From a virus, in IMG/VR virus record IMGVR_UViG_3300032087_002755: 64,000 bases of DNA. One strand, given 5' to 3'. Under the pieces are notes generated by a model that had not been told where the DNA came from, ran no database searches, and was given only the letters and a program-made list of their open reading frames with translations. Made by a program: the position numbers and the translations under genes. This document shows, in pieces, positions 4,151 to 19,954 of the stretch (positions within the stretch are counted from its first letter, which is position 1; each line of letters starts with the position of its first letter).

Positions 4151-6514
4151 ATGACAAAAAGAAACGAAAAAGACATACTTGCTAAACTAATGGCTACTGA
4201 GAACATTACCATTGTTCACAAGAAAATTGACACTGCATATTTTGATGTAAAGAATAGGATACTTGCTTGTCCTATCTTTAAAGAAGATATTTCTGCAGAA
4301 CTTTATGACCTATTCATGGGACATGAAGTTGGACATGCATTGAATACACCTTACGAGGGTCTTCACTCTGCATTAGAAATGAATAGAACACTTAAAGGAT
4401 ATCTTAATGTTGTTGAAGACGTTAGGATTGAGAAAGCAATCAAAAACAAATTCCAAGGATTAAGGAAATCATTCTACACTGCATACAACGAGTTAATGGA
4501 AATGGATTTCTTCCAGTTAAAAGGTAGAGACCTTTCAACACTTTCATTGATTGACAAAATTAATTTACAAACTAAAGTCGGTTCAAGACTTGGTCTTCAA
4601 TTCAATACAGTTGAACAAGGTTTCTTAGATATGTCAGAAGCATGTAAGACTTGGGAAGACGTTGTTGAATGTGCAACTGCAATCTATGAGTGGTCTAAAG
4701 AGAATGAGACAAGAACTGAAGATGACGAAATGTTAGTTCCTCAAATGTTTGACATTGGTGACGAAGAAGAAGACGAAGACGGAGACGAATCAGAAATAGA
4801 AGAATTTGAGAATGAATCTAAAGAATCTTCAGACGGTGGAGATTCAGACGAAGACGATGCAGAAGAGGATTCACTTCCCGAGTTAAACACTGATACTGGT
4901 GAGACTGAAGAGGAAAATGCTGAACAAGAAGAAGACATTGACGAATCAGACAATCAAGTTAAGTCTACTGGTGGTAAAGAAGGTGGACAAGGATTCCATG
5001 ACAACCAAGACGGTGCAAGGGAATCAATCACTGAACACGCTGCACATAACGGTGAAAACCAATTTCTTTCAGATGAGAACACAATCAAATCTACAATCAA
5101 TCTAAGAAAAGTGTTTGCAGAAAATGATATGCATGACGTTGTGATTCCTTTCAAACAAGTTCTTAAAGACTGGAAAGAATATGTTTCTGATTCTAGTTAC
5201 TACACTGCAGAGAAACTTGAAAAGAATTATGGAAGAGGTGTCTATACTGCAAAGAAACTAGAACAAAAGAACAAAAAAATTATTGCTCATATGGCAAAAG
5301 AATTTGAGATGAAACAAACTGCAAAAGTTTCTAAGAAAGCTTTCAGTGGTAAAACTGGTAAGTTAGATATGAATAGACTTGCAAAATATCAAATTGTTGA
5401 TGACATTTTCAAAAGAGCTATGTATCTTCCCGAGGGTGAAAACCACGGATTGAATGTTCTTCTTGATTGGAGTGGTTCAATTGCTGATGAGGTTGTAGAC
5501 CTTTTAGAACAATCAATAATACTTGCAGAGTTCTGTAGAAAAACAAACATTCCTTACAGAGTGTATCTTTTCTCTGATGGATATGCTAGTGGTGAGACAG
5601 ACGAATATGGATATCAGAGACATGACGGAAGACTTATTGAAATCTTCTCTAATGAAATGAGTAACAGACAATTCAAAGAAATGATGACTTATGTTGGTTG
5701 CATGTATGCAAACTACTTCTCTCAAAAAATTTCATGGAGAAACTATGAGAAAGCTATTGTTTCTTACAATGAGTTCTTCGGTGAGTATGGTGGAATTGAG
5801 AGTGACGGTGCTTACTGGGATTTAGAAACTAACTTCAGACCTCAAAACTATAGACTCGGTGGAACTCCACTTGACCAAACACTTGTTGCACTTAGAACTC
5901 TATTGCCTGAGTTCAATGCAAGATATCAAGTTGAGAAATCAATCTTGACTATAATCACTGATGGGTTTTCACATTCTGCAGACTTCTTAAGAGCGACTGA
6001 AGAAGAGAGAAAAGACATTGCAGAACAAGAAGAATTTATCGGTGACGGTGCATGGAGAACTTCAAGGTCTAGAGACTTAATTGACCCATATTCAAACAAA
6101 GTGTTCCCACTTAAACAAAAGAGTGATTACTATTCAAGGGAAGGTTTTGAAACAACTCAGAACATTCTAGAATGGATATCAGAGACTTGTGGTGTGATTG
6201 TTACTGGATACTTTGTTCTAGGTAAAAAAGGAGACTTGTACAACATTCTAGGATTTGTAGAAGATTCAAGGTCTTACTGTCATGACGAGGTTTGGAGAGA
6301 AATCAGAAAAGAAGGTAAAGTGTTCAAGTGTAGAGGATATAACAAACTGTTTATCACTTATGCAAAGAACATGAACACTGAAGGTTCTGATGAACTTGGA
6401 GACGAGTTTATTGATGCCAAAAAAGTGAGGGTAATGGCTGCCTTCAAAAGAAACCAAAAATCAAAAACCACTTCAAGGTTCTTGACTAACGAATTTATAA
6501 AGGAGATTGCATAA
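4151..6514 (+). CDS. CobT-like protein: N-terminal HExxH metallopeptidase-like domain, acidic linker, C-terminal VWA domain
   Basis: HEVGH; D/E-rich linker; MIDAS LLDWSGS, GGTPL, IITDG; near a MoxR/CobS ATPase. Confidence 0.85.
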   Translation: MTKRNEKDILAKLMATENITIVHKKIDTAYFDVKNRILACPIFKEDISAELYDLFMGHEVGHALNTPYEGLHSALEMNRTLKGYLNVVEDVRIEKAIKNKFQGLRKSFYTAYNELMEMDFFQLKGRDLSTLSLIDKINLQTKVGSRLGLQFNTVEQGFLDMSEACKTWEDVVECATAIYEWSKENETRTEDDEMLVPQMFDIGDEEEDEDGDESEIEEFENESKESSDGGDSDEDDAEEDSLPELNTDTGETEEENAEQEEDIDESDNQVKSTGGKEGGQGFHDNQDGARESITEHAAHNGENQFLSDENTIKSTINLRKVFAENDMHDVVIPFKQVLKDWKEYVSDSSYYTAEKLEKNYGRGVYTAKKLEQKNKKIIAHMAKEFEMKQTAKVSKKAFSGKTGKLDMNRLAKYQIVDDIFKRAMYLPEGENHGLNVLLDWSGSIADEVVDLLEQSIILAEFCRKTNIPYRVYLFSDGYASGETDEYGYQRHDGRLIEIFSNEMSNRQFKEMMTYVGCMYANYFSQKISWRNYEKAIVSYNEFFGEYGGIESDGAYWDLETNFRPQNYRLGGTPLDQTLVALRTLLPEFNARYQVEKSILTIITDGFSHSADFLRATEEERKDIAEQEEFIGDGAWRTSRSRDLIDPYSNKVFPLKQKSDYYSREGFETTQNILEWISETCGVIVTGYFVLGKKGDLYNILGFVEDSRSYCHDEVWREIRKEGKVFKCRGYNKLFITYAKNMNTEGSDELGDEFIDAKKVRVMAAFKRNQKSKTTSRFLTNEFIKEIA

Positions 6515-6717
6515 TGGAAGCAAAATACATGATGAATGAAACGTTCATTTTAAGCAGAGACGATTACAGGGATTTAACCAATAGGATAATGATACTGCAA
6601 TCGAGAAAAGAAGAAGCACCTTATATCGTGGAACACGATTATATCCAAGACACTTTTGAAGTGACACTACTGGATAACAGGTATACACTTAAAACAATAA
6701 TGGAGAAGACACAATGA
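6514..6717 (+). CDS. Hypothetical protein
   Basis: SD and stop/start coupling. Confidence 0.6.
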   Translation: MEAKYMMNETFILSRDDYRDLTNRIMILQSRKEEAPYIVEHDYIQDTFEVTLLDNRYTLKTIMEKTQ

Positions 6718-6959
6718 GAGACCCTTTAAGAGTAGACGAAGCATATTACATTTCACACCAAACGGATTACAGTAAATTTGCAGATGCAGTTATGGACGTG
6801 GGGCCTTCGCCTTGTGTCAGATATAATTGTCCACTAGTTAATGAGTGTGCAAGTGAAGAGAAGGAGTGTTTTGCCTTTAGAATTTGGGTCAACAATGGTG
6901 GTGAACTGAATGAAAAACAACAACTAAAAATGGGAACAAGATTTGAGTCAATTAAGTGA
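6714..6959 (+). CDS. Hypothetical Cys-rich protein
   Basis: Four Cys; ATGA overlap with upstream gene. Confidence 0.6.
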   Translation: MRDPLRVDEAYYISHQTDYSKFADAVMDVGPSPCVRYNCPLVNECASEEKECFAFRIWVNNGGELNEKQQLKMGTRFESIK

Positions 6960-6967
6960 TAAACTAC

Positions 6968-6997
6968 TTGACAATGGGTCTCACTTTTTAGTATACT
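6968..6997 (+). promoter_or_regulatory. Conserved early promoter, copy 3
   Basis: TTGACA-ATGGGTCTCACTTTTTAG-TATACT. Confidence 0.85.
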
Positions 6998-7044
6998 ATA
7001 CAAGATGAGAAAATTAACTAATAACTTAAAACCAAGGAGACTAT

Positions 7045-8295
7045 ATGGATAAAAGAAGTTACGATAGAAGTGAATCGATTGACGTGATGGGAAAACCGTT
7101 TCACTATACACCCGATAGGAAGGAATTCTTAGATGCATTGCAATCTAAGTATCCGAATCAATCGGTTTTTACTAAAGAAGAAATTGACAATACTGGGACA
7201 TTCCCGTATTGGGTGAAATCTTCTAGGTACAATTTTAGAGACAATGGTGTCTTTAATCTTACCCAAGTTATCGGTGGATACAACGGTGGATATTCTGAAT
7301 CTGCAGTAGTTCCTCCTGTAACGTCAGCACCTCAAGTGGTTGCAGTTGCACCACCAGTTGCTCCACAAAACATGCCTGTTGCAGCTGCAACTGAGTCTGT
7401 TAATATAAATGATAATGTAAAAATCATTCCCGAGAAAATGTCTAACTATGTTCCTTTTGGACACTTCAAAGATGTCAAGAACATAATCAAGTCTAAAATC
7501 TTCTTTCCAGTATTTGTTACTGGTTTGAGTGGTAATGGTAAAACATTAATGATTGAACAAACTTGTGCTCAATTGAAGAGAGAACTCTTCAGAGTTAACA
7601 TTACAATCGAGACTGATGAGGACGACCTAATGGGTGGTCACACTTTAGTCAATGGTAATGTCGTCTTCAGAGAAGGCCCTGTTATCAAAGCTATGAGAAA
7701 AGGTGCCGTGTTACTTCTTGACGAAGTTGACTTAGGTTCTAACAAACTTATGTGTCTACAATCAGTTCTTGAGGGTAAAGGATACCTAATCAAGAAAACT
7801 GGTGAGTGGGTTTCACCTAAAGAAGGTTTCACCATTCTTGCTACTGCAAACACTAAAGGACAAGGTTCTGATGATGGAAAGTTCATAGGAACTCAAATCA
7901 TGAATGAAGCCATGTTGGAAAGGTTTGCAATCACAATGCAACAAGAATACCCACCAGTGACAACTGAAAGGTCTATTCTTAAAAAAGAAATGGAGTTAAC
8001 TGGTGAAGTTGACGAAGAGTTTTGTGTCAAACTAGTAGATTGGGCAGACATAATCAGAAAAACCTACTATGAAGGTGCGATTGATGATGTTATCACTACT
8101 AGAAGACTGGTTCACATTGTGAATGCATACAGAATGTTCAATGACAAATTGAAGTCAATAACAATGTGTATTTCAAGATTTGACGAAGAGACTAGAAATA
8201 GTATCCTCGACCTCTACTCCAAGATTGATGCTGGAGTAGACTTGAATGCAGAAAACCCAGTTGACGAAACTGGGTCTTCAGAGTATAATGACTAG
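7045..8295 (+). CDS. cobS: CobS/MoxR-family AAA+ ATPase
   Basis: Walker A GLSGNGKT, Walker B LLLDEVD, ATANTKGQG, NEAMLERF. Confidence 0.9.
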   Translation: MDKRSYDRSESIDVMGKPFHYTPDRKEFLDALQSKYPNQSVFTKEEIDNTGTFPYWVKSSRYNFRDNGVFNLTQVIGGYNGGYSESAVVPPVTSAPQVVAVAPPVAPQNMPVAAATESVNINDNVKIIPEKMSNYVPFGHFKDVKNIIKSKIFFPVFVTGLSGNGKTLMIEQTCAQLKRELFRVNITIETDEDDLMGGHTLVNGNVVFREGPVIKAMRKGAVLLLDEVDLGSNKLMCLQSVLEGKGYLIKKTGEWVSPKEGFTILATANTKGQGSDDGKFIGTQIMNEAMLERFAITMQQEYPPVTTERSILKKEMELTGEVDEEFCVKLVDWADIIRKTYYEGAIDDVITTRRLVHIVNAYRMFNDKLKSITMCISRFDEETRNSILDLYSKIDAGVDLNAENPVDETGSSEYND

Positions 8296-12031: not shown

Positions 12032-12057
12032 AAGAGGGGTCTATCGACCCCTTTTTT
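12032..12057 (+). terminator. Rho-independent terminator
   Basis: AAGAGGGGTC-TATC-GACCCC-TTTTTT. Confidence 0.85.
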
Positions 12058-12078: not shown

Positions 12079-12086
12079 TATAAATA
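12079..12086 (+). promoter_or_regulatory. Late promoter heading the curli/cyclase operon
   Basis: TATAAATA just after terminator, 5 nt before ATG 12092. Confidence 0.75.
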
Positions 12087-12091
12087 AAGGT

Positions 12092-12385
12092 ATGGATATA
12101 TTTGCATTGATAAGTGAAGTGGGAGCTCCAATTGCTGGAAGTCTAGTAATGGGATTCTTTATCTTTACAGTTATCAAACAAATACTTGAAGGTGTTGTTG
12201 ATTCTATCAAAACCCTCACCATGTTTTGTAAGAGTTTAGAGAACAGAGCAAGAACAATGTCTAACGAAATGATTAAGATAGATATGTTAGTGTCAAGTGC
12301 TTTAGAACTCAGACCCGATATAGAGAGAATTGCACGTGCAGAGAACTTTATAGAAGACGGGAAACTAGACGTGAGAAGGGACTAG
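12092..12385 (+). CDS. Small single-TM coiled-coil protein
   Basis: LISEVGAPIAGSLVMGFFIF then coiled coil; resembles next gene. Confidence 0.7.
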   Translation: MDIFALISEVGAPIAGSLVMGFFIFTVIKQILEGVVDSIKTLTMFCKSLENRARTMSNEMIKIDMLVSSALELRPDIERIARAENFIEDGKLDVRRD

Positions 12386-12666
12386 TGGAAAATATAGCAC
12401 AACTTATATCTGATTATGGATTTCCAATCGTAATGATGGTTGGACTTGGATATTTCGTATATTACGTATGGTGGTTTGTGGGTGAACAATTAGAACCCGA
12501 AATCGAAAAACAACATTTTGCATTGATAAAAGTGATTGACCAAGTACGAATGTTAGACCAAGACTTGATTCGTCTACAACAAAAAGTAGACGTGGTTCTT
12601 GAATATAAAGAGAACCAAAAGAAAAAGGGAAACATAACAGATGATAAAGCCGATAGTAATAATTAG
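12385..12666 (+). CDS. Small single-TM coiled-coil protein (YvrJ/BhlA-like N-terminus)
   Basis: LISDYGFPIVMMVGLGYFVY then coiled coil. Confidence 0.7.
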   Translation: MENIAQLISDYGFPIVMMVGLGYFVYYVWWFVGEQLEPEIEKQHFALIKVIDQVRMLDQDLIRLQQKVDVVLEYKENQKKKGNITDDKADSNN

Positions 12667-13099
12667 TATTTGTTTTGCACTTAGTGTAAGTGCAGATGAA
12701 ATAGTTCACAAATTCAAAAGTCCTTCCTTCAGTGGAATAGGACAATCATCACATTATCTTACCATTGAGAACCAAGAGAAATCAAGACGTGATAAGATAG
12801 CACAAGACGTAGAAGACAGAATTGCAAAGGCAGAGAGAGACGCTAATAACACTACACTTGCCAAATTTTTAAGAAATGTCGAGAGCAGAATTTATGCTCA
12901 GATAGCAAAACAGTTAGTAGAAAATATGTTCTCTAACGGAGAAGCTGCACAATTCGGTTCCTTCACTATTGAAGGTAATACAGTCACATATGAAAAGATA
13001 ACACTAGACGATGGTGTAGAAGTTATCAGATTAACAATTGTATCCGATGACGGAACAACAACAACATTAGATATACCAGTTGCAACGGGAAGTTTCTAA
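12641..13099 (+). CDS. csgF: Curli assembly component CsgF-like
   Basis: Signal peptide, then HKFKSPSFSG (cf. CsgF FxNPxFGG); C-terminal TTTLDIP; adjacent to csgG. Confidence 0.8.
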   Translation: MIKPIVIISICFALSVSADEIVHKFKSPSFSGIGQSSHYLTIENQEKSRRDKIAQDVEDRIAKAERDANNTTLAKFLRNVESRIYAQIAKQLVENMFSNGEAAQFGSFTIEGNTVTYEKITLDDGVEVIRLTIVSDDGTTTTLDIPVATGSF

Positions 13100-14053
13100 A
13101 TGAACAGAATTGGACTAGTAGGACTCACGGTAGTCTTGTTCACTACAGGGTGTGCAAGTGTTCCTTCTATGACAGATAGTTGCACCTCTACAGTTATGGA
13201 AAGGGTGGGTTCTTGTATTGAAGAAGCACAAGTAGTGAAGATACCTACTTATCAAGAACTTGCAGAATTACCACCTGCTGAAACAATGCCTATCGTTGCA
13301 GTCTATGGTTTCCTAGATAAGACAGGACAAAGGAAGAGAATGGACGGAGTTGCCTCCTTCTCAACTGCAGTGACCCAAGGTGCAGAAGCATATTTAATTG
13401 ATGCACTTAAATCTGCAAGTGGTGGAAAATGGTTTAGGGTTGTAGAACGAACAAATTTAGATGCACTCGTAAGAGAACGACAAATCATACGTAGTGCTAG
13501 AGAAGACTTTGCAAATCAAGAAGGTAATGAGGATTCCCCAACAGGAATTCAACCACTTCTATTTGCTGGAATCCTACTTGACGGTGGGGTTATTGGTTAT
13601 GATACCAACATTGAAAGTGGAGGCCGAGGTGCAAGAACATTGGGCATCGGTGCTTCGAACTCTTATAGAAGAGATGTTGTGACTGTAAGTTTAAGAGGGG
13701 TCTCTACACTTACAGGTGAAATTTTACTTAATGTACAAACTACCAAAACGATTCTATCGACTGGTGGGGGGTATGACGTGTTTAAATTTCTAGACATGGA
13801 TACCCAATTAGTGGAAGTTGAAGACGGAGTTGCAACAAACGAAGGAGTATCGAAAGCTACTCGTTCTGCAATTGAACTTGCGGTCTTAGAATTAATAAAA
13901 CAAGGTGACGAAAGGGGATTTTGGAAGATAAATTGGCCGATAACTGAATCGAAAATAAAAGAGGAAGTGTCAGACTTTTTAGACGAAAATGAAATTGTCT
14001 TAGTTACAGAGGGAAAAACAAATGAAGAAAATAGAATATTCAATAAAGAATAA
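13100..14053 (+). CDS. csgG: Curli secretion channel CsgG (outer-membrane lipoprotein)
   Basis: Lipobox FTTGC; VAVYGFLDKTGQRK, STAVTQGA, WFRVVER, ERQIIR, GGVIGYD. Confidence 0.92.
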   Translation: MNRIGLVGLTVVLFTTGCASVPSMTDSCTSTVMERVGSCIEEAQVVKIPTYQELAELPPAETMPIVAVYGFLDKTGQRKRMDGVASFSTAVTQGAEAYLIDALKSASGGKWFRVVERTNLDALVRERQIIRSAREDFANQEGNEDSPTGIQPLLFAGILLDGGVIGYDTNIESGGRGARTLGIGASNSYRRDVVTVSLRGVSTLTGEILLNVQTTKTILSTGGGYDVFKFLDMDTQLVEVEDGVATNEGVSKATRSAIELAVLELIKQGDERGFWKINWPITESKIKEEVSDFLDENEIVLVTEGKTNEENRIFNKE

Positions 14054-14771
14054 ACTTCTTTTATTATGTTTATCATTAGGGTTAACTGGTTTCGTAACTG
14101 CAGCTGCAGATGATAACGAGATATGGTTACAACAGTCGGGTGACAATCTAACATTAGATTTCACTCAAAAAGGTTATGGAAACAAAGTTGGTGGAGATGA
14201 CTTTTCAAGTTCAGCAATTGACATGATTTTGACTGGTGGAACTAACAGTTTTACATTATTGCAAGATGGTGATGCTAACAAACTATACGGGCCTTTTATT
14301 GCAGATAACTCAACAGTAGATTTAACTTTCACTGGTGATTCAAATTCAATGGACTGGAACGTAGGATATGTTGGAAGTGCAGATAACTTAAACATGTTAG
14401 GAACTATTACAGGTTCATCAAACACATTTGATATTGATGTCGGATATGATGCATCTGCAGAATATCTTAACTGGGATTTATCACTCAGTGGTTCATCAAA
14501 TGTATTCACTACAAAAATAGACAGTGATAATGCTGTTTGGAATTGGACTATTACTGGTTCATCTAACGACATTAACACAAACCAATCTGATGCATCTGAT
14601 AATAGTATCACTGCAACTTTAACTGGTTCTACCAATGACATCGACATCATTCAAAAGAGTGGTTCAGATGCTGGGTGTCCTTCGGGGTCACTATGTAGTG
14701 GTATTATTGATGTATCTTTCGTGACTTCTAATGCAGATATTGACATCGTACAAAAAGACTCTGCTGATTAA
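14022..14771 (+). CDS. Secreted curlin-like beta-solenoid repeat protein 1
   Basis: Signal peptide; repeated strand-turn units ending GxxN (QSGDN, QKGYGN, QDGDAN, TGSSN, SGSSN, TGSTN). Confidence 0.75.
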   Translation: MKKIEYSIKNKLLLLCLSLGLTGFVTAAADDNEIWLQQSGDNLTLDFTQKGYGNKVGGDDFSSSAIDMILTGGTNSFTLLQDGDANKLYGPFIADNSTVDLTFTGDSNSMDWNVGYVGSADNLNMLGTITGSSNTFDIDVGYDASAEYLNWDLSLSGSSNVFTTKIDSDNAVWNWTITGSSNDINTNQSDASDNSITATLTGSTNDIDIIQKSGSDAGCPSGSLCSGIIDVSFVTSNADIDIVQKDSAD

Positions 14772-15867
14772 TATTTTACTTATTGGTTCACTTCAAGGTG
14801 AACCGATAGGTGAGATAACAGAATATAAAGGGTATGCAGGCCTGCAAAGGGACGGAGAGAATTCCGTTGTCCTTGCAGATAGTGAACCCGAAGTGTTGAT
14901 GTATGATACAGCACAAACTCAGAATGGGAGAATGAAAATACAGTTTCTTGGAGACGAGGAATTGGATTTAACAGAACACTCCAAGGTTTGGATAGACGAG
15001 GTCTACTATGACCCCGACCCTTCCAAATCTAAAATGGCCATACGAATGGCACAAGGCACCGCTCGATTTGCTTCGGGATTCGGTGGTAAGATAAAAAAAA
15101 GTAATATCAAAGTGTCCACACCCACAGCACAAATCGCTGTGGTTGGAACTGATTTCACTACAAGTATAGATGAAATCGGAAGGTCTCTTGTTATACTATT
15201 GCCTGATAAATGGGGTAACCCTTCGGGTAAAATTATCGTAAGTAACGCAGGTGGAAGTGTAACACTAGAAGAAGCCTATCAAGCAACTATGGTTTCTACA
15301 TTTGATGATTCACCGACTAAACCAGTAACAGTCAGTGGAATAAGTGTAGGAATGATTGATAATATGTTTATTGTCAATCCACCCGAGGAGGTGCAAGACC
15401 AAATTGCAGAAGAATCGTCTAACAACGAAAATGATAGTAGTAACATACTGGACGTGGACTTTTTAGAGTTCAATGATTTAGAAGAAGATTATTTTGAAGA
15501 TGACGAATTAGAATATACAGAACTCGATAGAGACTTATTAGATATCGATTTCTTACAGGATTTACTAGACGTAGTTTTAGATATTGACCGAAAGGTTGGT
15601 ATTGATGTAGAGAGAAAGGCAGACGCTTTTTCTGTTGCAAGAATAGAAGGAACTGCGTTTGGGTTTGACAAGGACACTCAATACAATACAATTGTTGACA
15701 AGGGTCTTGGTCAAATTTGGTTCTACAGGGAAGTTAATGGAATTATATCCATTAAAATACCAATCTATGCACAAGCAACGATTAGAACCACTACAGACGA
15801 AAAAGGTTCACTAATTAAAGTGGGTGATGGTTCGTCTATAAATATTACCATTACACAAACAAACTAG
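14731..15867 (+). CDS. FecR-domain exported protein with acidic linker
   Basis: Signal-like N-terminus; DTAQTQNGRMKIQF..LDLTEHSKV, VSTPTAQIAVVGTDF, GKIIVSNAGG typical of FecR domains. Confidence 0.8.
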   Translation: MQILTSYKKTLLINILLIGSLQGEPIGEITEYKGYAGLQRDGENSVVLADSEPEVLMYDTAQTQNGRMKIQFLGDEELDLTEHSKVWIDEVYYDPDPSKSKMAIRMAQGTARFASGFGGKIKKSNIKVSTPTAQIAVVGTDFTTSIDEIGRSLVILLPDKWGNPSGKIIVSNAGGSVTLEEAYQATMVSTFDDSPTKPVTVSGISVGMIDNMFIVNPPEEVQDQIAEESSNNENDSSNILDVDFLEFNDLEEDYFEDDELEYTELDRDLLDIDFLQDLLDVVLDIDRKVGIDVERKADAFSVARIEGTAFGFDKDTQYNTIVDKGLGQIWFYREVNGIISIKIPIYAQATIRTTTDEKGSLIKVGDGSSINITITQTN

Positions 15868-15875
15868 GAGATTAT

Positions 15876-16025
15876 ATGAATAGTATGTTAGAAAAACTTC
15901 GTAATTGGCACGAATTCCAAATTGACGGATTTCGAGATGCACTGAGACTAGACGATTACCATATGTTATGGTTATCATTCCTCAAGGGAGTAGTATTTAC
16001 ATTATTATTTTTATGGTTAATATAA
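15876..16025 (+). CDS. Small membrane protein (49 aa, not in ORF track)
   Basis: AGGAG SD; MNSMLEKLRNWHEFQ...WLSFLKGVVFTLLFLWLI. Confidence 0.6.
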   Translation: MNSMLEKLRNWHEFQIDGFRDALRLDDYHMLWLSFLKGVVFTLLFLWLI

Positions 16026-16030
16026 GTTAA

Positions 16031-16849
16031 ATGAAAGATACCACACTGAACATTGCAGTTTTATTTCTACTTTCCATATTAGGATTGGGGTGGTCAAGTG
16101 TGGCATCTGCTAATGATAATTCAATAACAATTAAACAAGTTAATAGTGGTGATAATGTTGATTTAGATGTAACACAAGAAGGTTTTGCAAATACAATTGA
16201 CTTTTCCTTTGACCACCAAAACAACACTATGAAATTAATTCAAAGTGGTAATAACAATTATATTGGATATACAGATGCATGGGGTTCGGGTTATCAGTGG
16301 GGTGGTGACCTAGACGGACAAAACAGTGATATAGAAATCAGACAAAAATGTTCTTTTGCAACATGTAATGACAATGATTTCCAATTTCATATTCAAGGTG
16401 ATTCCAATCAAGTTATCTTTGGTCAAGGATATGAACTCAATAATTCACTTACACCTACTTGGAGTTATGACGGAACTGAGCCTGGTGGAAACTTTGTAAG
16501 ATTAGATATTCATGGTTCCTCCAATGATTTTGTAGGAAGTCAGAAACAAGATACAAGTGCTGTTGAGCATAGTATGACTTGGAACATTTATGGTAATAAT
16601 AATTATGTCTATTCAAAACAAATGCAGAATGGAAATAAGACACTTACAGGAACAATCAACAACAGTAACAATACAATATCAACAGTTCAGAAAAAGGCTG
16701 GTGCTCACACTGCAAACATAACTCTTAGTGGAACTTACGGAACAAATCTTACCTTAACTCAAACAGGTGACACTGCACAATCATATACACTATCCCAAAC
16801 TTGTCAAACAGTTGGTGGTTGTACATTATCAGTAACCCAAGGAAATTAA
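16031..16849 (+). CDS. Secreted curlin-like beta-solenoid repeat protein 2
   Basis: Signal peptide ending ASA; QxGxxN repeats (QEGFAN, QSGNNN, QGDSN, HGSSN, YGNNN); Q/N/G/S/T-rich. Confidence 0.8.
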   Translation: MKDTTLNIAVLFLLSILGLGWSSVASANDNSITIKQVNSGDNVDLDVTQEGFANTIDFSFDHQNNTMKLIQSGNNNYIGYTDAWGSGYQWGGDLDGQNSDIEIRQKCSFATCNDNDFQFHIQGDSNQVIFGQGYELNNSLTPTWSYDGTEPGGNFVRLDIHGSSNDFVGSQKQDTSAVEHSMTWNIYGNNNYVYSKQMQNGNKTLTGTINNSNNTISTVQKKAGAHTANITLSGTYGTNLTLTQTGDTAQSYTLSQTCQTVGGCTLSVTQGN

Positions 16850-16850
16850 A

Positions 16851-17108
16851 ATGACAGAATGTCCACCCGAGTTTTATGAGTGTCTCACTGAAGAAGAGTA
16901 TGACGACATATTAGAACTCTTTGAAGAGAACAATATTTCAATGCCTGAATCAATGGGTGACGCAGAAGTAGCTGCACAATTTGTTTGGGAAGTTCTTTTT
17001 CTCGGCCCAGTAGAGTTAATCTCTATTGGACTTACAATGACGGTTCTTGCAACATATGGTTTAACAATATACTATATGTTTAAAAAGATACAAAAGAAAT
17101 TTAGTTAA
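16851..17108 (+). CDS. Small membrane protein
   Basis: Acidic N-terminus, C-terminal TM, basic tail; coupled to cyclase start. Confidence 0.65.
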   Translation: MTECPPEFYECLTEEEYDDILELFEENNISMPESMGDAEVAAQFVWEVLFLGPVELISIGLTMTVLATYGLTIYYMFKKIQKKFS

Positions 17109-18946
17109 TGTATAGTTGGAAAACAGTCCTAATCACAATAGGTGCATTAGTAGGACTTAAAATTTGGTCTCCCTATCTAGTAGAAAATATCACTTGGTCT
17201 TACTTTGATGTTTTACATCAATCTCAGGAAGTTATCAGGTCAGATGACATTGTCTTAGTCGACATAGACGAAAAATCACTTGAAGTGTTCGGTCAGTTTC
17301 CTATCAAACGTAGTATCTATAGGGATATCATGCTTGACACTCATTACACTAATACACATGTTTTTACTCAACTCTTCAATCAACCTGATAGAAATTCAGG
17401 AGAAGATGAAATTTTTGCAGAAGGATTAGTCAACCGATTATCAATTCTTGCAGCTGCACCAACCATACAAAAAGACACTGGTTCTGCACCCTTCGTAGGT
17501 AACTCTACCTTTGGGGGTGGAAGTGCAACAGACCACCTATGGAACTTCTCAGGAATTTCAAGTCCTATCAGGATACTTCAGGACAATACTTACGGAGTTG
17601 GGGTTACTGTTGCAACACCTAGTGTAACTGGGACTGCAAACTTTGACGGGACGACTAGGTCAATACCTTTAATCGTCACTGCAAACGAACAGGTATATCC
17701 GTCACTTGCACTAGAAACACTTCGTGCATTAAAAGACCAACCTTCATACCAAACTAAAATTACAGAAGTTGGAGTAGAGTGGGTAAGAATGGGTAGGGAC
17801 AAACCTATCACCACCACTTCAACAAGTGATGTTATGGTAACCTATTGGAACGAATTCCAACGGGTTTCTGCAGTAGACTTACCTAGTCTAAATCTTAATA
17901 ATAAGATTCTTGTTTGGGGACTGACTGCAGAGGGATTGAATAATCCAGTTTCAACCCCAGTGGGTGTATTGTATCCTCACGAAGTTCAAGCGAACCATAT
18001 CCAAACCGTTTTGTCAGAAGTTCGTATACAACAATCCTACTATCTTGAACAGCTAGAAATTGTTCTTCTTCTGATAGTTCTTGGATTGATATTGGTGATG
18101 GTTTACAAACTTCCCACAGCTCTTGCGGGGATAATGAGTCTAACACTTGTAGGACTTCAAATCTTCGGGAGTTATTATATTTGGACTTCAAGTTACGTTC
18201 TTTTCGATACCTTCTTTTCATCGATTGCCTCCTTGATTGTTTTCGGTCATGCTTCATTCAATCAATATTACACAACTTACAAACTCAAAGAACAAATTAA
18301 GAAGCAGTTCCAAAAGTATTTATCTCCCGACATGGTTAACCAACTTGCAGAAAACCCCGATTTACTTAAACTAGGTGGTGATAGAAAAGAGTTAACTTTC
18401 ATGTTTATGGACATATGTGGATTTACCCCCATAAGTGAACACTATATGAAACAGGACGACCCCGAAGGATTGGTAGAACTAATCAACAAGTTTCTTGACA
18501 TGCAAACTAAGATAATCCTAAATAACAATGGAACCATCGATAAGTATATGGGCGATTGTATTATGAGTTTTTGGAACGCACCATTAGATTGTCCGAATCA
18601 TGCTGAAATGGCAGTAAAGTCTGCAATAGAAATTTTAGAAGCAACCAAGGAACTCAATGAAGAACTCAAACCGCTTAATCTTCCACCCATTAACGTGGGT
18701 ATTGGGATTAACACTGGTGAGTGCATCGTTGGAAACATGGGGTCAGAACTTAGATTTGACTATTCCGTCATTGGAGACGCCGTCAATCTCGGTGCTAGAC
18801 TCGAGGGACAAACAAGAAATTATGATGGGGTGGACGTGTTGTTGGGAGAAGCAACATATCGACAATGTCCGTCTAGAGCATTCACTGAAGTCGACAGAAT
18901 TCTTGTCAAAGGTAAATCTGAACCAGTTACAGTTTACACTATCTGA
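17108..18946 (+). CDS. CHASE2-domain class III adenylate cyclase
   Basis: N-terminal TM, IVLVDIDEKSL, YPSLALE, TPVG..YPHEVQAN, three TMs; catalytic FMDICGFT, DKYMGD, IGDAVNLGARLEG. Confidence 0.93.
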   Translation: MYSWKTVLITIGALVGLKIWSPYLVENITWSYFDVLHQSQEVIRSDDIVLVDIDEKSLEVFGQFPIKRSIYRDIMLDTHYTNTHVFTQLFNQPDRNSGEDEIFAEGLVNRLSILAAAPTIQKDTGSAPFVGNSTFGGGSATDHLWNFSGISSPIRILQDNTYGVGVTVATPSVTGTANFDGTTRSIPLIVTANEQVYPSLALETLRALKDQPSYQTKITEVGVEWVRMGRDKPITTTSTSDVMVTYWNEFQRVSAVDLPSLNLNNKILVWGLTAEGLNNPVSTPVGVLYPHEVQANHIQTVLSEVRIQQSYYLEQLEIVLLLIVLGLILVMVYKLPTALAGIMSLTLVGLQIFGSYYIWTSSYVLFDTFFSSIASLIVFGHASFNQYYTTYKLKEQIKKQFQKYLSPDMVNQLAENPDLLKLGGDRKELTFMFMDICGFTPISEHYMKQDDPEGLVELINKFLDMQTKIILNNNGTIDKYMGDCIMSFWNAPLDCPNHAEMAVKSAIEILEATKELNEELKPLNLPPINVGIGINTGECIVGNMGSELRFDYSVIGDAVNLGARLEGQTRNYDGVDVLLGEATYRQCPSRAFTEVDRILVKGKSEPVTVYTI

Positions 18947-19250
18947 ACCACCTAGTAATCGTCAATGGACTATATTCATTAGTCTACAACTCTTAGATAT
19001 CTATACAACCTATCGTGGACTTCAATATGATTGTGTTGTAGAAATGAATCCAGTATTGGGTGAATCACCTTCTGTAAGTAAAATGTTTTTCACTAAGGCT
19101 GCTTTACTTGCACCAGCACTCAATTACGACTTAAAGAATGAAAATCTTTCACAAGAAGTCTTTAACGAATTAAACTCATTTATGACACTTGTAGTTGTAA
19201 ATAACATTAATACAGCCAATAAAGCAAAAAAATATTGCATAAAAAAGTAA
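18657..19250 (+). CDS. Membrane protein (DUF5658-like C-terminus) overlapping cyclase 3' end
   Basis: AAGGA SD at 18647; signal-peptide-like N-terminus; LQLLDIYTTYRGL...EMNP. Confidence 0.6.
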   Translation: MKNSNRLIFHPLTWVLGLTLVSASLETWGQNLDLTIPSLETPSISVLDSRDKQEIMMGWTCCWEKQHIDNVRLEHSLKSTEFLSKVNLNQLQFTLSEPPSNRQWTIFISLQLLDIYTTYRGLQYDCVVEMNPVLGESPSVSKMFFTKAALLAPALNYDLKNENLSQEVFNELNSFMTLVVVNNINTANKAKKYCIKK

Positions 19251-19257
19251 AAACCCC

Positions 19258-19286
19258 CTTGAAATTTTAGAAAAAACCCATATAAT
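19258..19286 (+). promoter_or_regulatory. Candidate sigma32-like (or sigma70) promoter upstream of hsp20
   Basis: CTTGAAA...CCCATAT; also readable as TTGAAA-16-TATAAT. Confidence 0.5.
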
Positions 19287-19299
19287 AGTAGTATGGTGT

Positions 19300-19307
19300 T
19301 ATAAATA
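19300..19307 (+). promoter_or_regulatory. Late promoter TATAAATA
   Basis: Exact consensus. Confidence 0.7.
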
Positions 19308-19445
19308 CCATTGTGAGAGAACTTTAAAAGAGCTCGGATTTGGAACTTGGATTGGGCAACGCCGACATCAAGTGACCCCATTTCTTCAAAAGAGCTCGGT
19401 TCTCGAACATTAATGCAATGCTCATTAGAGGTTGCACATTATAAA

Positions 19446-19462
19446 CTTGCTTAATAAAGGAG
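19446..19462 (+). promoter_or_regulatory. ROSE-type RNA thermometer hairpin
   Basis: CUUGCUU-aaua-AAGGAG: U(U/C)GCU motif pairs with the SD with a bulged G, 6 nt before hsp20 ATG. Confidence 0.8.
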
Positions 19463-19468
19463 AAAACT

Positions 19469-19885
19469 ATGACTATCTATGACGATGTCTTCGGGAAATC
19501 ATTCCCATTCGCAATCGGGTTCGACAGAACTCTTCAACTATTAGAACGTGCAGATGTACAATCTAATGCAAACTATCCACCTTACAATATTGTAAAAGTC
19601 GATGCAGAAAACTTTGTAATCGAACTTGCAGTAGCTGGATTTGGTAAGAAAGAAATTTCAATCTTAAAAGAGAAAGAAGTTCTTATCATTAAAGGTGAAC
19701 AGGAAAAAGAAGAAAGTAAAGAGTTTGTTCATCAAGGACTCTCTTCAAGAAACTTTACTAGAAGGTTTACACTTGCAGACGATATTGTCGTCAATGGTGC
19801 AGACATGAAGGACGGTATTTTGAAGGTATCACTTGAGAGAATTGTGCCTGAGGAAGACAAACCTCAAGAAATCAAAATTTCTTAA
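19469..19885 (+). CDS. hsp20: Small heat-shock protein Hsp20/IbpA
   Basis: IGFDR, YPPYNI, IELAVAGF, FTRRFTLAD, DGILKVSL, IPEEDKP-type C-terminus. Confidence 0.95.
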   Translation: MTIYDDVFGKSFPFAIGFDRTLQLLERADVQSNANYPPYNIVKVDAENFVIELAVAGFGKKEISILKEKEVLIIKGEQEKEESKEFVHQGLSSRNFTRRFTLADDIVVNGADMKDGILKVSLERIVPEEDKPQEIKIS

Positions 19886-19954
19886 AAACCCTCTTACGGA
19901 TACACCTGTTATGTTGTATAATAGGTGTATCCTTTTATATTATGGAGATTTACT

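Follow-up and report, generated by a model that had tools for sequence, protein, structure and literature searches.

The 64,000-nt stretch of viral DNA analysed here (IMG/VR record IMGVR_UViG_3300032087_002755; hereafter the window) belongs to a T4-like marine myophage with a G+C content of ~36%. Between positions 12092 and 19250 it carries 11 densely packed genes, all on the + strand, whose junctions range from -41 to +8 nt, the overlap of the last gene with its neighbour aside. We identify the block as a module known from pelagiphages, which joins viral type VIII secretion (curli) to FecR and an adenylate cyclase; all of its parts are intact. The module itself has already been published, and the mechanism set out for it below is a proposal. 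We place at roughly 40% the probability that the curli pore, the curlin-like proteins, the FecR-fold protein and the CHASE2 cyclase form a single trans-envelope device. The block and the signals ahead of it comprise the following features (TM, transmembrane; aa, amino acids; HK, histidine kinase).

12034–12056, + strand: intrinsic terminator that closes the regA-side unit; folds at -16.1 kcal/mol (z -4.96), with a U run after the hairpin
12079–12086, + strand: putative T4-type late promoter box TATAAATA, called from its sequence
12092–12385, + strand: one-TM coiled-coil protein 1, 97 aa, published as ‘HK’ (phrog_18771, E 4e-24)
12385–12666, + strand: one-TM coiled-coil protein 2, 93 aa, paralog of protein 1 (phrog_18771, E 2e-23)
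12641–13099, + strand: CsgF homolog with signal peptide (Pfam CsgF, E 9e-13, whole model)
13100–14053, + strand: CsgG lipoprotein channel (Pfam CsgG, E 7e-48; TTGC lipobox)
14022–14771, + strand: curlin-like beta-solenoid protein 1, with periodic Q-x-G and G-[DS]-S-N repeats
14731–15867, + strand: exported FecR-fold protein, 378 aa (Pfam FecR, E 2e-9)
15876–16025, + strand: 49-aa tail-anchored TM protein (open reading frame and hydropathy)
16031–16849, + strand: curlin-like protein 2, a hypervariable cassette (family profile against curlin structure 8c50, E 3.5e-8)
16851–17108, + strand: 85-aa acidic protein with a C-terminal TM segment (open reading frame and hydropathy; conserved in close relatives)
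17108–18946, + strand: TM-CHASE2-TM-class III adenylate cyclase (Pfam CHASE2, E 8e-27; Guanylate_cyc, E 2e-17)
18657–19250, + strand: 197-aa protein with a hydrophobic N terminus and DUF5658 (Pfam, E 5e-7)

A first-pass annotation, made from the DNA letters alone, had named this run of genes, and Pfam, PHROG and hydropathy recover every one of them on the + strand. Wittmers et al. (2022) described the module in podo- and myo-pelagiphages as HK(s), CsgF, CsgG, CsgA/B, FecR, a second CsgA/B and an adenylate cyclase, assigned it an alphaproteobacterial affinity with transfer between phage families, found it at all 65 GOV2.0 ocean virome stations examined, where it takes up several percent of the phage genome, and reported from metatranscriptomes that the viral module genes are transcribed (PMC9599517). 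Earlier phage papers dealt with CsgF/G only (PMC7029224, PMC9004378). Two Kyanoviridae, Pelagibacter phage HTVC008M and Methylophilales phage Melnitz, are the closest named relatives of the window. They carry the block in the same order, which bears out the statement of the first-pass annotation that csgF and csgG occur in some T4-like marine phages, and the GenBank record of Melnitz annotates the same six genes. At the DNA level the sole match in a phage collection is one of 537 nt, to the HTVC008M cyclase. The upstream neighbours of the block are cobS, the genes for the gp45 clamp and for the gp44/gp62 clamp loader, and regA.

Components of the gene block

The window CsgG matches the E. coli CsgG structures at E 3e-44; at the constriction F56 is kept, while Y51 and N55 are not. 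The mature N terminus of its partner CsgF reads FKSPSFSG, which appears similar to the NPxFGG-type CsgG-binding motif of E. coli CsgF. CsgE, CsgC and CsgD, which the first-pass annotation could not recognise, have no Pfam match among the cluster proteins, and scans of one Henriciella genome and four phage records related to the window likewise gave no CsgE. A pore that lacks its gate might serve as a sensing window, through which an outside solute or peptide would enter the periplasm to be sensed by the FecR protein and CHASE2, the curlins being accessory. CHASE2 is a periplasmic sensor domain, and import has been raised as a possibility (PMC9599517, PMC7029224). Nevertheless, the conserved CsgF adds a second constriction to the CsgG barrel (PMC9004378), and the conserved curlins would go unexplained, which makes a sensing window improbable in our view.

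Both curlin-like proteins of the first-pass annotation hold as curlins at the level of family profiles, but as single sequences they miss the Pfam Curlin_rpt threshold (E 9.3 and 1.4) and find nothing among PDB sequences at E 10. In the family alignment of curlin 1 the Q-x-G and G-x-x-N positions are invariant and recur every 22–26 residues, and the best PDB match of the family profile is E. coli CsgA (8enq, E 0.0024); against NCBIfam CsgA the protein scores E 9e-5, short of the cut-off. Its AlphaFold2 (AF2) model is an all-beta solenoid of stacked strand pairs, with a predicted local distance difference test score (pLDDT) of 78 and a predicted template modelling score of 0.71. In a wide VIA search this model reaches Z 16.3 with Pontibacter CsgA (8c50, the match of highest identity), at a poor root-mean-square deviation (rmsd) of 9.0 Å, and Z 16.5–17 with SufD-type beta-helices; Foldseek returns nothing for it at E 0.001. 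The curlin 2 family aligns with the curlin 1 family at 99.5% probability in hhalign, and the Pfam Curlin_rpt cut-off is passed by the Melnitz proteins at both curlin positions and by the second curlin of HTVC008M. At family level only, the proteins of the window are thus classed as curlin-repeat proteins.

Curlin 1 is conserved and is the sole solenoid protein also in a minimal, five-gene form of the cluster. Curlin 2 is only 36–44% identical in relatives whose adjacent genes are 80–92% identical, its length ranges from 211 to 301 aa, and it behaves as a swapped, hypervariable cassette. In the HTVC008M ortholog (positions 6509–7834 of locus L001) a PA14 domain precedes the curlin repeats.

The FecR gene is placed between the two curlin genes and overlaps that of curlin 1 by 41 nt. 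Its product consists of a signal peptide, a FecR domain, an acidic linker and a C-terminal beta-sandwich; the AF2 model (pLDDT 83) has a signal-peptide helix, a beta domain at residues 27–190 followed by helices, a disordered acidic linker at ~240–273 and a confident seven-strand C-terminal domain at 300–378. Residues 56–211 superpose on the cell-surface signalling domain of PupR (6ovk_R; Z 15.4, rmsd 2.4, 134 residues aligned) and on a Bacteroidales anti-sigma periplasmic domain (Z 13.4), and for the C-terminal domain ESM Atlas gave no usable match. We considered and rejected the reading that the protein regulates iron or sigma factors in the manner of FecR: although the fold matches, the protein has neither the N-terminal cytoplasmic anti-sigma domain nor a TM anchor, its FecR domain starting ~35 residues after the signal-peptide-like helix.

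The CHASE2 match of the cyclase covers residues 15–326, with TM-like hydropathy peaks at 7–25 and 318–336. The first-pass annotation had described its catalytic residues as intact, and alignment to Synechocystis Cya2 and a Lys variant (2w01, 6fht) agrees: both metal-binding Asp residues and the substrate Lys in DKYMGD are present, as are Asn and Arg in the GDAVNLGARLEG motif, and the second specificity position, as read from the motif, is Ser. The protein is therefore classed as a class III adenylate cyclase with complete catalytic residues. A Pycsar defence system was also considered, the cyclase matching PycC models (E 1e-24) through the shared fold; no effector with a domain for binding cyclic nucleoside monophosphates was found in five related phage records, PADLOC gives no further match, and we discarded this assignment.

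The membrane protein with which the first-pass annotation closed the run is present as the DUF5658 protein, although its gene most likely starts at ATG 18657, inside the cyclase gene. There is no start codon downstream of the cyclase stop, a conserved AAGGA-N5-ATG lies at 18657, and the first ~96 codons would run in the +1 frame within the cyclase gene, an overlap of ~290 nt. In each of the 23 loci with DUF5658, divergent ones included, that frame stays open over the 96–141 codons that precede the cyclase stop; in 17 loci without DUF5658 it is open for just 1–53 codons, and the +2 frame for 1–27. Synonymous diversity of the cyclase is mildly lower in the overlap than in the preceding codons (0.244 against 0.326), and no such drop is seen where DUF5658 is missing. 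The gene is likely to be a genuine out-of-frame overlap; alternatively, a frameshift may fuse it to the cyclase.

The terminator and late promoter that the first-pass annotation placed ahead of the block are both conserved, with the correction that the box ends 5 nt before ATG 12092. Among 43 distinct related upstream regions, the hairpin is retained in relatives with altered stem sequences and preserved pairing, and TATAAATA occurs exactly in 20. A box of the form [TCA]ATAAATA or CTAAATA stands 5–6 nt 5' of the ATG in nearly all loci of the lineage, and neither hairpin nor box is found in the more distant relatives (L076–L081 and HTVC008M). Within the window TATAAATA is observed 10 times against 5.9 expected, a count that is not significant alone, and all 10 copies lie on the + (coding) strand. 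Given the conservation of hairpin and box and this strand bias, late expression of the block is a reasonable inference. One internal copy (15837–15844), 31 nt 5' of the 49-aa gene and inside the last FecR codons, is kept in 24 of 25 relatives; since it sits in conserved coding sequence (S-I-N-I), whose constraint could account for the conservation, we do not call it a promoter. Downstream of the block, within 19259–19932, comes an Hsp20 gene (19469–19885; Pfam E 1e-18), which most relatives also have after the cluster. It has signals of its own: ahead of it a sigma-70-like box and, at 19300, TATAAATA, and behind it a strong terminator (19898–19932).

The paralogous proteins 1 and 2 each have an N-terminal TM segment, as seen in hydropathy, and a coiled-coil tail. 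The published histidine kinase label (PMC9599517) does not fit them, because protein 1 contains no His at all, both are shorter than 100 aa, and neither matches Pfam HisKA or HATPase even at E 10. Protein 1 belongs to no family in Pfam, NCBIfam or PADLOC, and its YvrJ/BhlA-like leads in ESM Atlas, below 0.9, are too weak to count as evidence; protein 2 has a weak holin PHROG match restricted to its first 20 residues. The 49-aa TM protein is retained in relatives with a CsgG identity of at least ~76%.

These holin-like leads, along with the late promoter and the failure to find a CsgE gate in the cluster or the relatives scanned, are what can be cited for the CsgG/F pore as a lysis-timing or permeabilising device of a pinholin- or secretin-like kind (PMC9004378), in which the small TM proteins would be holin-like and the cyclase a timer input. 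The leads fall below any threshold, however, and CsgG, located in the outer membrane, would be unable to depolarise the inner membrane. Conserved secreted curlin homologs would furthermore be superfluous for a pure lysis pore, and a bacterial copy of the cluster, in Henriciella, retains the five core genes but lacks the small TM proteins. A lysis pore consequently strikes us as very unlikely.

Conservation and origin of the module

Synteny was assessed by tblastn of twelve window proteins against 80 IMG/VR loci and HTVC008M. The core order (two one-TM proteins, CsgF, CsgG, curlin 1, FecR, curlin 2, cyclase) is found in every sufficiently long locus and is the same in HTVC008M and Melnitz; among the loci compared it holds down to identities of 62–68% for CsgG and 38–43% for the cyclase, whose overall range is 35–43%. 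FecR and cyclase genes, whose linkage to csgFG in related phages was a point on which the first-pass annotation could have failed, are thus linked to it throughout. Other T4-like phages carry the minimal form, composed of two small proteins, CsgF, CsgG, a 230-aa solenoid protein, FecR and cyclase. For two distant FecR representatives the contigs, 2.9 and 4.8 kb long, are not large enough to show gene context.

A CsgG search of a 5.8-billion-protein set was uninformative on cellular relatives, the matches listed being phage copies. When 185,579 species genomes were searched with an alignment of CsgG, 80 loci were obtained. Around 69 are ordinary cellular CsgF-CsgG loci, mostly alphaproteobacterial, and no FecR or cyclase gene lies within 10 kb of any of them. 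Ten further loci (L085–L092, L094 and L095) are contigs of metagenome-assembled genomes (MAGs) labelled Rhodobacterales, Saprospirales, Sphingobacteriales, Synechococcus, Flavobacteriaceae and others. The cluster on these contigs is of the phage type and includes the paralogous small TM proteins; for that reason the contigs probably stem from phages and were wrongly binned into MAGs. The remaining locus lies on a 397-kb contig of a Henriciella sp. MAG (L093:6466–12489) and encodes CsgF, CsgG, a 504-aa curlin-like protein, FecR and a CHASE2 cyclase, with no small TM proteins. It is flanked by genes for a TonB-dependent receptor, an FAD oxidase and an FAA hydrolase, and its G+C content of ~52% is host-like.

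The phylogeny of CsgG was estimated from 62 rows with a quick IQ-TREE run, with support from the Shimodaira–Hasegawa-like approximate likelihood-ratio test (SH-aLRT) only and no bootstrap. All phage copies and the Henriciella copy form one clade of 27 rows (SH-aLRT 99), with the 35 ordinary cellular CsgG sequences on the opposite side (SH-aLRT 99); the window CsgG falls in the same FecR/cyclase-linked clade as those of HTVC008M and Melnitz. Henriciella CsgG nests with the minimal-form phages (SH-aLRT 98), and this position inside the phage clade suggests capture from a phage. The Henriciella cyclase has no close ortholog among 150 other genomes of its family. Its nearest relative in the large protein set is one copy of 96% identity, the rest being 43–50% identical, and two of the latter that were examined are both on phage contigs. 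On the simplest reading, the fusion of curli and FecR-cyclase parts arose once and was followed by a phage-to-bacterium transfer into Henriciella, the direction of transfer and the root being those of the quick CsgG tree only.

A possible trans-envelope sensor

Cellular CHASE2 cyclases offer a comparison. Among 20 Hyphomonadaceae CHASE2-type cyclase loci, 11 (L172, L178, L185 and eight more) adjoin a gene for a ~1300-aa protein with a FecR domain. Three of these 11 partners were scanned with Pfam, and all three have an N-terminal FecR domain followed by TPR repeats; in one, that of L185, the C terminus matches the end of a TonB-dependent-receptor barrel. The Hyphomonadaceae partner is a fused form of parts that other bacteria encode separately. 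In S. meliloti, the outer-membrane barrel protein NsrA is required to activate the CHASE2 cyclases CyaK and CyaD1/D2 (PMC7529298), and a Campylobacterota cluster combines a CHASE2 cyclase, a FecR protein of the outer membrane and a TPR protein (PMC9239204). The Sinorhizobium FecR-domain partner, given as SMc02178 in the first-pass annotation, is in fact SMc02177, a cAMP/Clr target (cAMP, cyclic AMP) (PMC5498481). The phage FecR protein, at 378 aa, has neither TPR repeats nor a barrel and is encoded together with CsgG, which fits CsgG/F replacing the outer-membrane part. The idea of the first-pass annotation that CsgG/F and solenoid subunits take the place of the outer-membrane receptor draws its best support, which is comparative, from the FecR-TPR/barrel partners and from NsrA.

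We tentatively propose the following mechanism. CsgG and CsgF would form an outer-membrane channel in the infected cell, which would export and anchor the curlin-like solenoid proteins, curlin 1 as a conserved base and curlin 2 as the variable, exposed part that contacts ligands. The exported FecR-fold protein could then connect this apparatus, on its periplasmic side, with the inner-membrane cyclase through the CHASE2 domain of the latter, such that events at the surface or in the periplasm would alter cAMP synthesis in the cytoplasm. The phage module would accordingly be an envelope sensor of the cellular FecR-CHASE2 kind in which a curli pore has taken over from the original TPR and outer-membrane barrel parts. 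In favour of such a single device count, besides the cellular FecR-CHASE2 pairs and NsrA, the intact gene content and catalytic residues, the separate CsgG clade, the lack of FecR and cyclase genes near ordinary cellular CsgG, and the minimal form in other T4-like phages. The module has also been kept together through deep divergence (~80 viral loci, HTVC008M and Melnitz), and the FecR fold matches a PupR domain that binds an outer-membrane transducer.

Several points weigh on the other side. Linkage within a phage genome is no proof of joint function, and the curlin identity of the window proteins comes from family profiles, not from single-sequence thresholds. No protein binding cyclic nucleoside monophosphates was found in five related phage records (HTVC008M, Melnitz and three related contigs), in a search for which control genomes gave matches, so that the cAMP output has no known reader in the phage. 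Some podophage modules are without the cyclase and the second curlin (PMC9599517), and hence the pore and fibre part can exist alone. Lastly, the stand-alone FecR protein SMc02177 is dispensable for signal perception in S. meliloti (PMC5498481).

The podophage modules without a cyclase also favour two co-inherited but separate functions: adhesive curli fibres for host aggregation (‘sibling capture’), or a superinfection barrier, on the one hand, and on the other a FecR-CHASE2 cyclase that reprograms host metabolism through cAMP or regulates the fibre genes (PMC9599517, PMC7029224). In cells the two halves do occur apart, as CsgF-CsgG without a cyclase and as FecR-CHASE2 without CsgG, and the hypervariable curlin 2, with its PA14 sugar-binding domain in the HTVC008M ortholog, is as would be expected of an adhesin. 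A division of this kind sits less well with the position of the FecR gene, interleaved with the curlin genes and overlapping the first, with the retention of a single-origin fusion across ~60% cyclase divergence, and with the loss from phage FecR of exactly the outer-membrane part of its cellular counterparts. Melnitz-infected cells, moreover, showed no clumping (PMC9004378). Separate functions are a possibility that we take seriously, though we lean towards thinking it unlikely.

Returning to the single trans-envelope device, a more specific version can be imagined, in which the FecR-CHASE2 core was kept, the TPR and barrel parts were dropped, and a curli pore with a fast-evolving curlin tip was added. 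The outcome would be a phage-made antenna on SAR11 or OM43 cells that reports contact with cells, particles or virions as a late cAMP signal and so tunes lysis or aggregation, with Henriciella holding a domesticated copy. We consider this version as a whole rather unlikely, and a role of the module in lysis timing and superinfection sensing is speculation. Both SAR11 and OM43 count among the most numerous marine bacteria. If the single-device reading is true, the module would be the first phage-built trans-envelope sensor and would offer a handle on how CHASE2 cyclases are activated in bacteria. The present comparison contributes to this reading that the fusion arose once, that FecR lost the barrel part and that one cellular copy nests among the phage copies, points which sharpen a testable hypothesis without establishing it. 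Further additions are that the ‘HK’ label is unsupported, that the curlin 2 cassette is hypervariable and that the DUF5658 gene probably overlaps that of the cyclase.

Relation to known systems

The closest counterpart of the block is the published pelagiphage type VIII secretion region (HTVC008M gp011–019; Melnitz genes 97–104), with which it shares the gene set, the gene order, the CsgG clade and a T4-like context near gp45, gp44/62 and regA. Relative to that module, the lineage of the window adds the 49-aa and 85-aa TM proteins and the overlapping DUF5658 gene. The published description reads the small TM proteins as histidine kinases and FecR as an iron regulator (PMC9599517), neither of which holds for the window proteins, and it makes no mention of CHASE2; nor do the earlier phage papers or the Melnitz record connect CHASE2 with the phage module.

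With bacterial curli, or type VIII secretion, the phage block has in common a CsgG lipoprotein, a CsgF and Sec-exported solenoid proteins that carry curlin repeats at family level. It departs from the E. coli CsgA–G system in that no CsgE, CsgC or CsgD was found in it, its constriction residues are partly altered and its curlin repeats are highly divergent. Compared with alphaproteobacterial CsgF-CsgG-curlin loci, the phage block is distinguished by its linkage to FecR and cyclase genes, a linkage missing from the ~69 ordinary cellular loci. The FecR/PupR anti-sigma regulators resemble the phage FecR protein in the fold of their periplasmic domain (6ovk), yet Pfam and the AF2 model give the phage cluster no extracytoplasmic function sigma factor or TonB-dependent transducer.

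The block also resembles the cellular CHASE2 systems of S. meliloti, Campylobacterota and Hyphomonadaceae, in which a class III CHASE2 cyclase adjoins the gene for a FecR-domain protein (as seen here in Hyphomonadaceae and as reported in PMC9239204). In contrast to these systems, the phage FecR protein is short and predicted to be soluble in the periplasm, and an unrelated outer-membrane channel, CsgG, is encoded alongside it.

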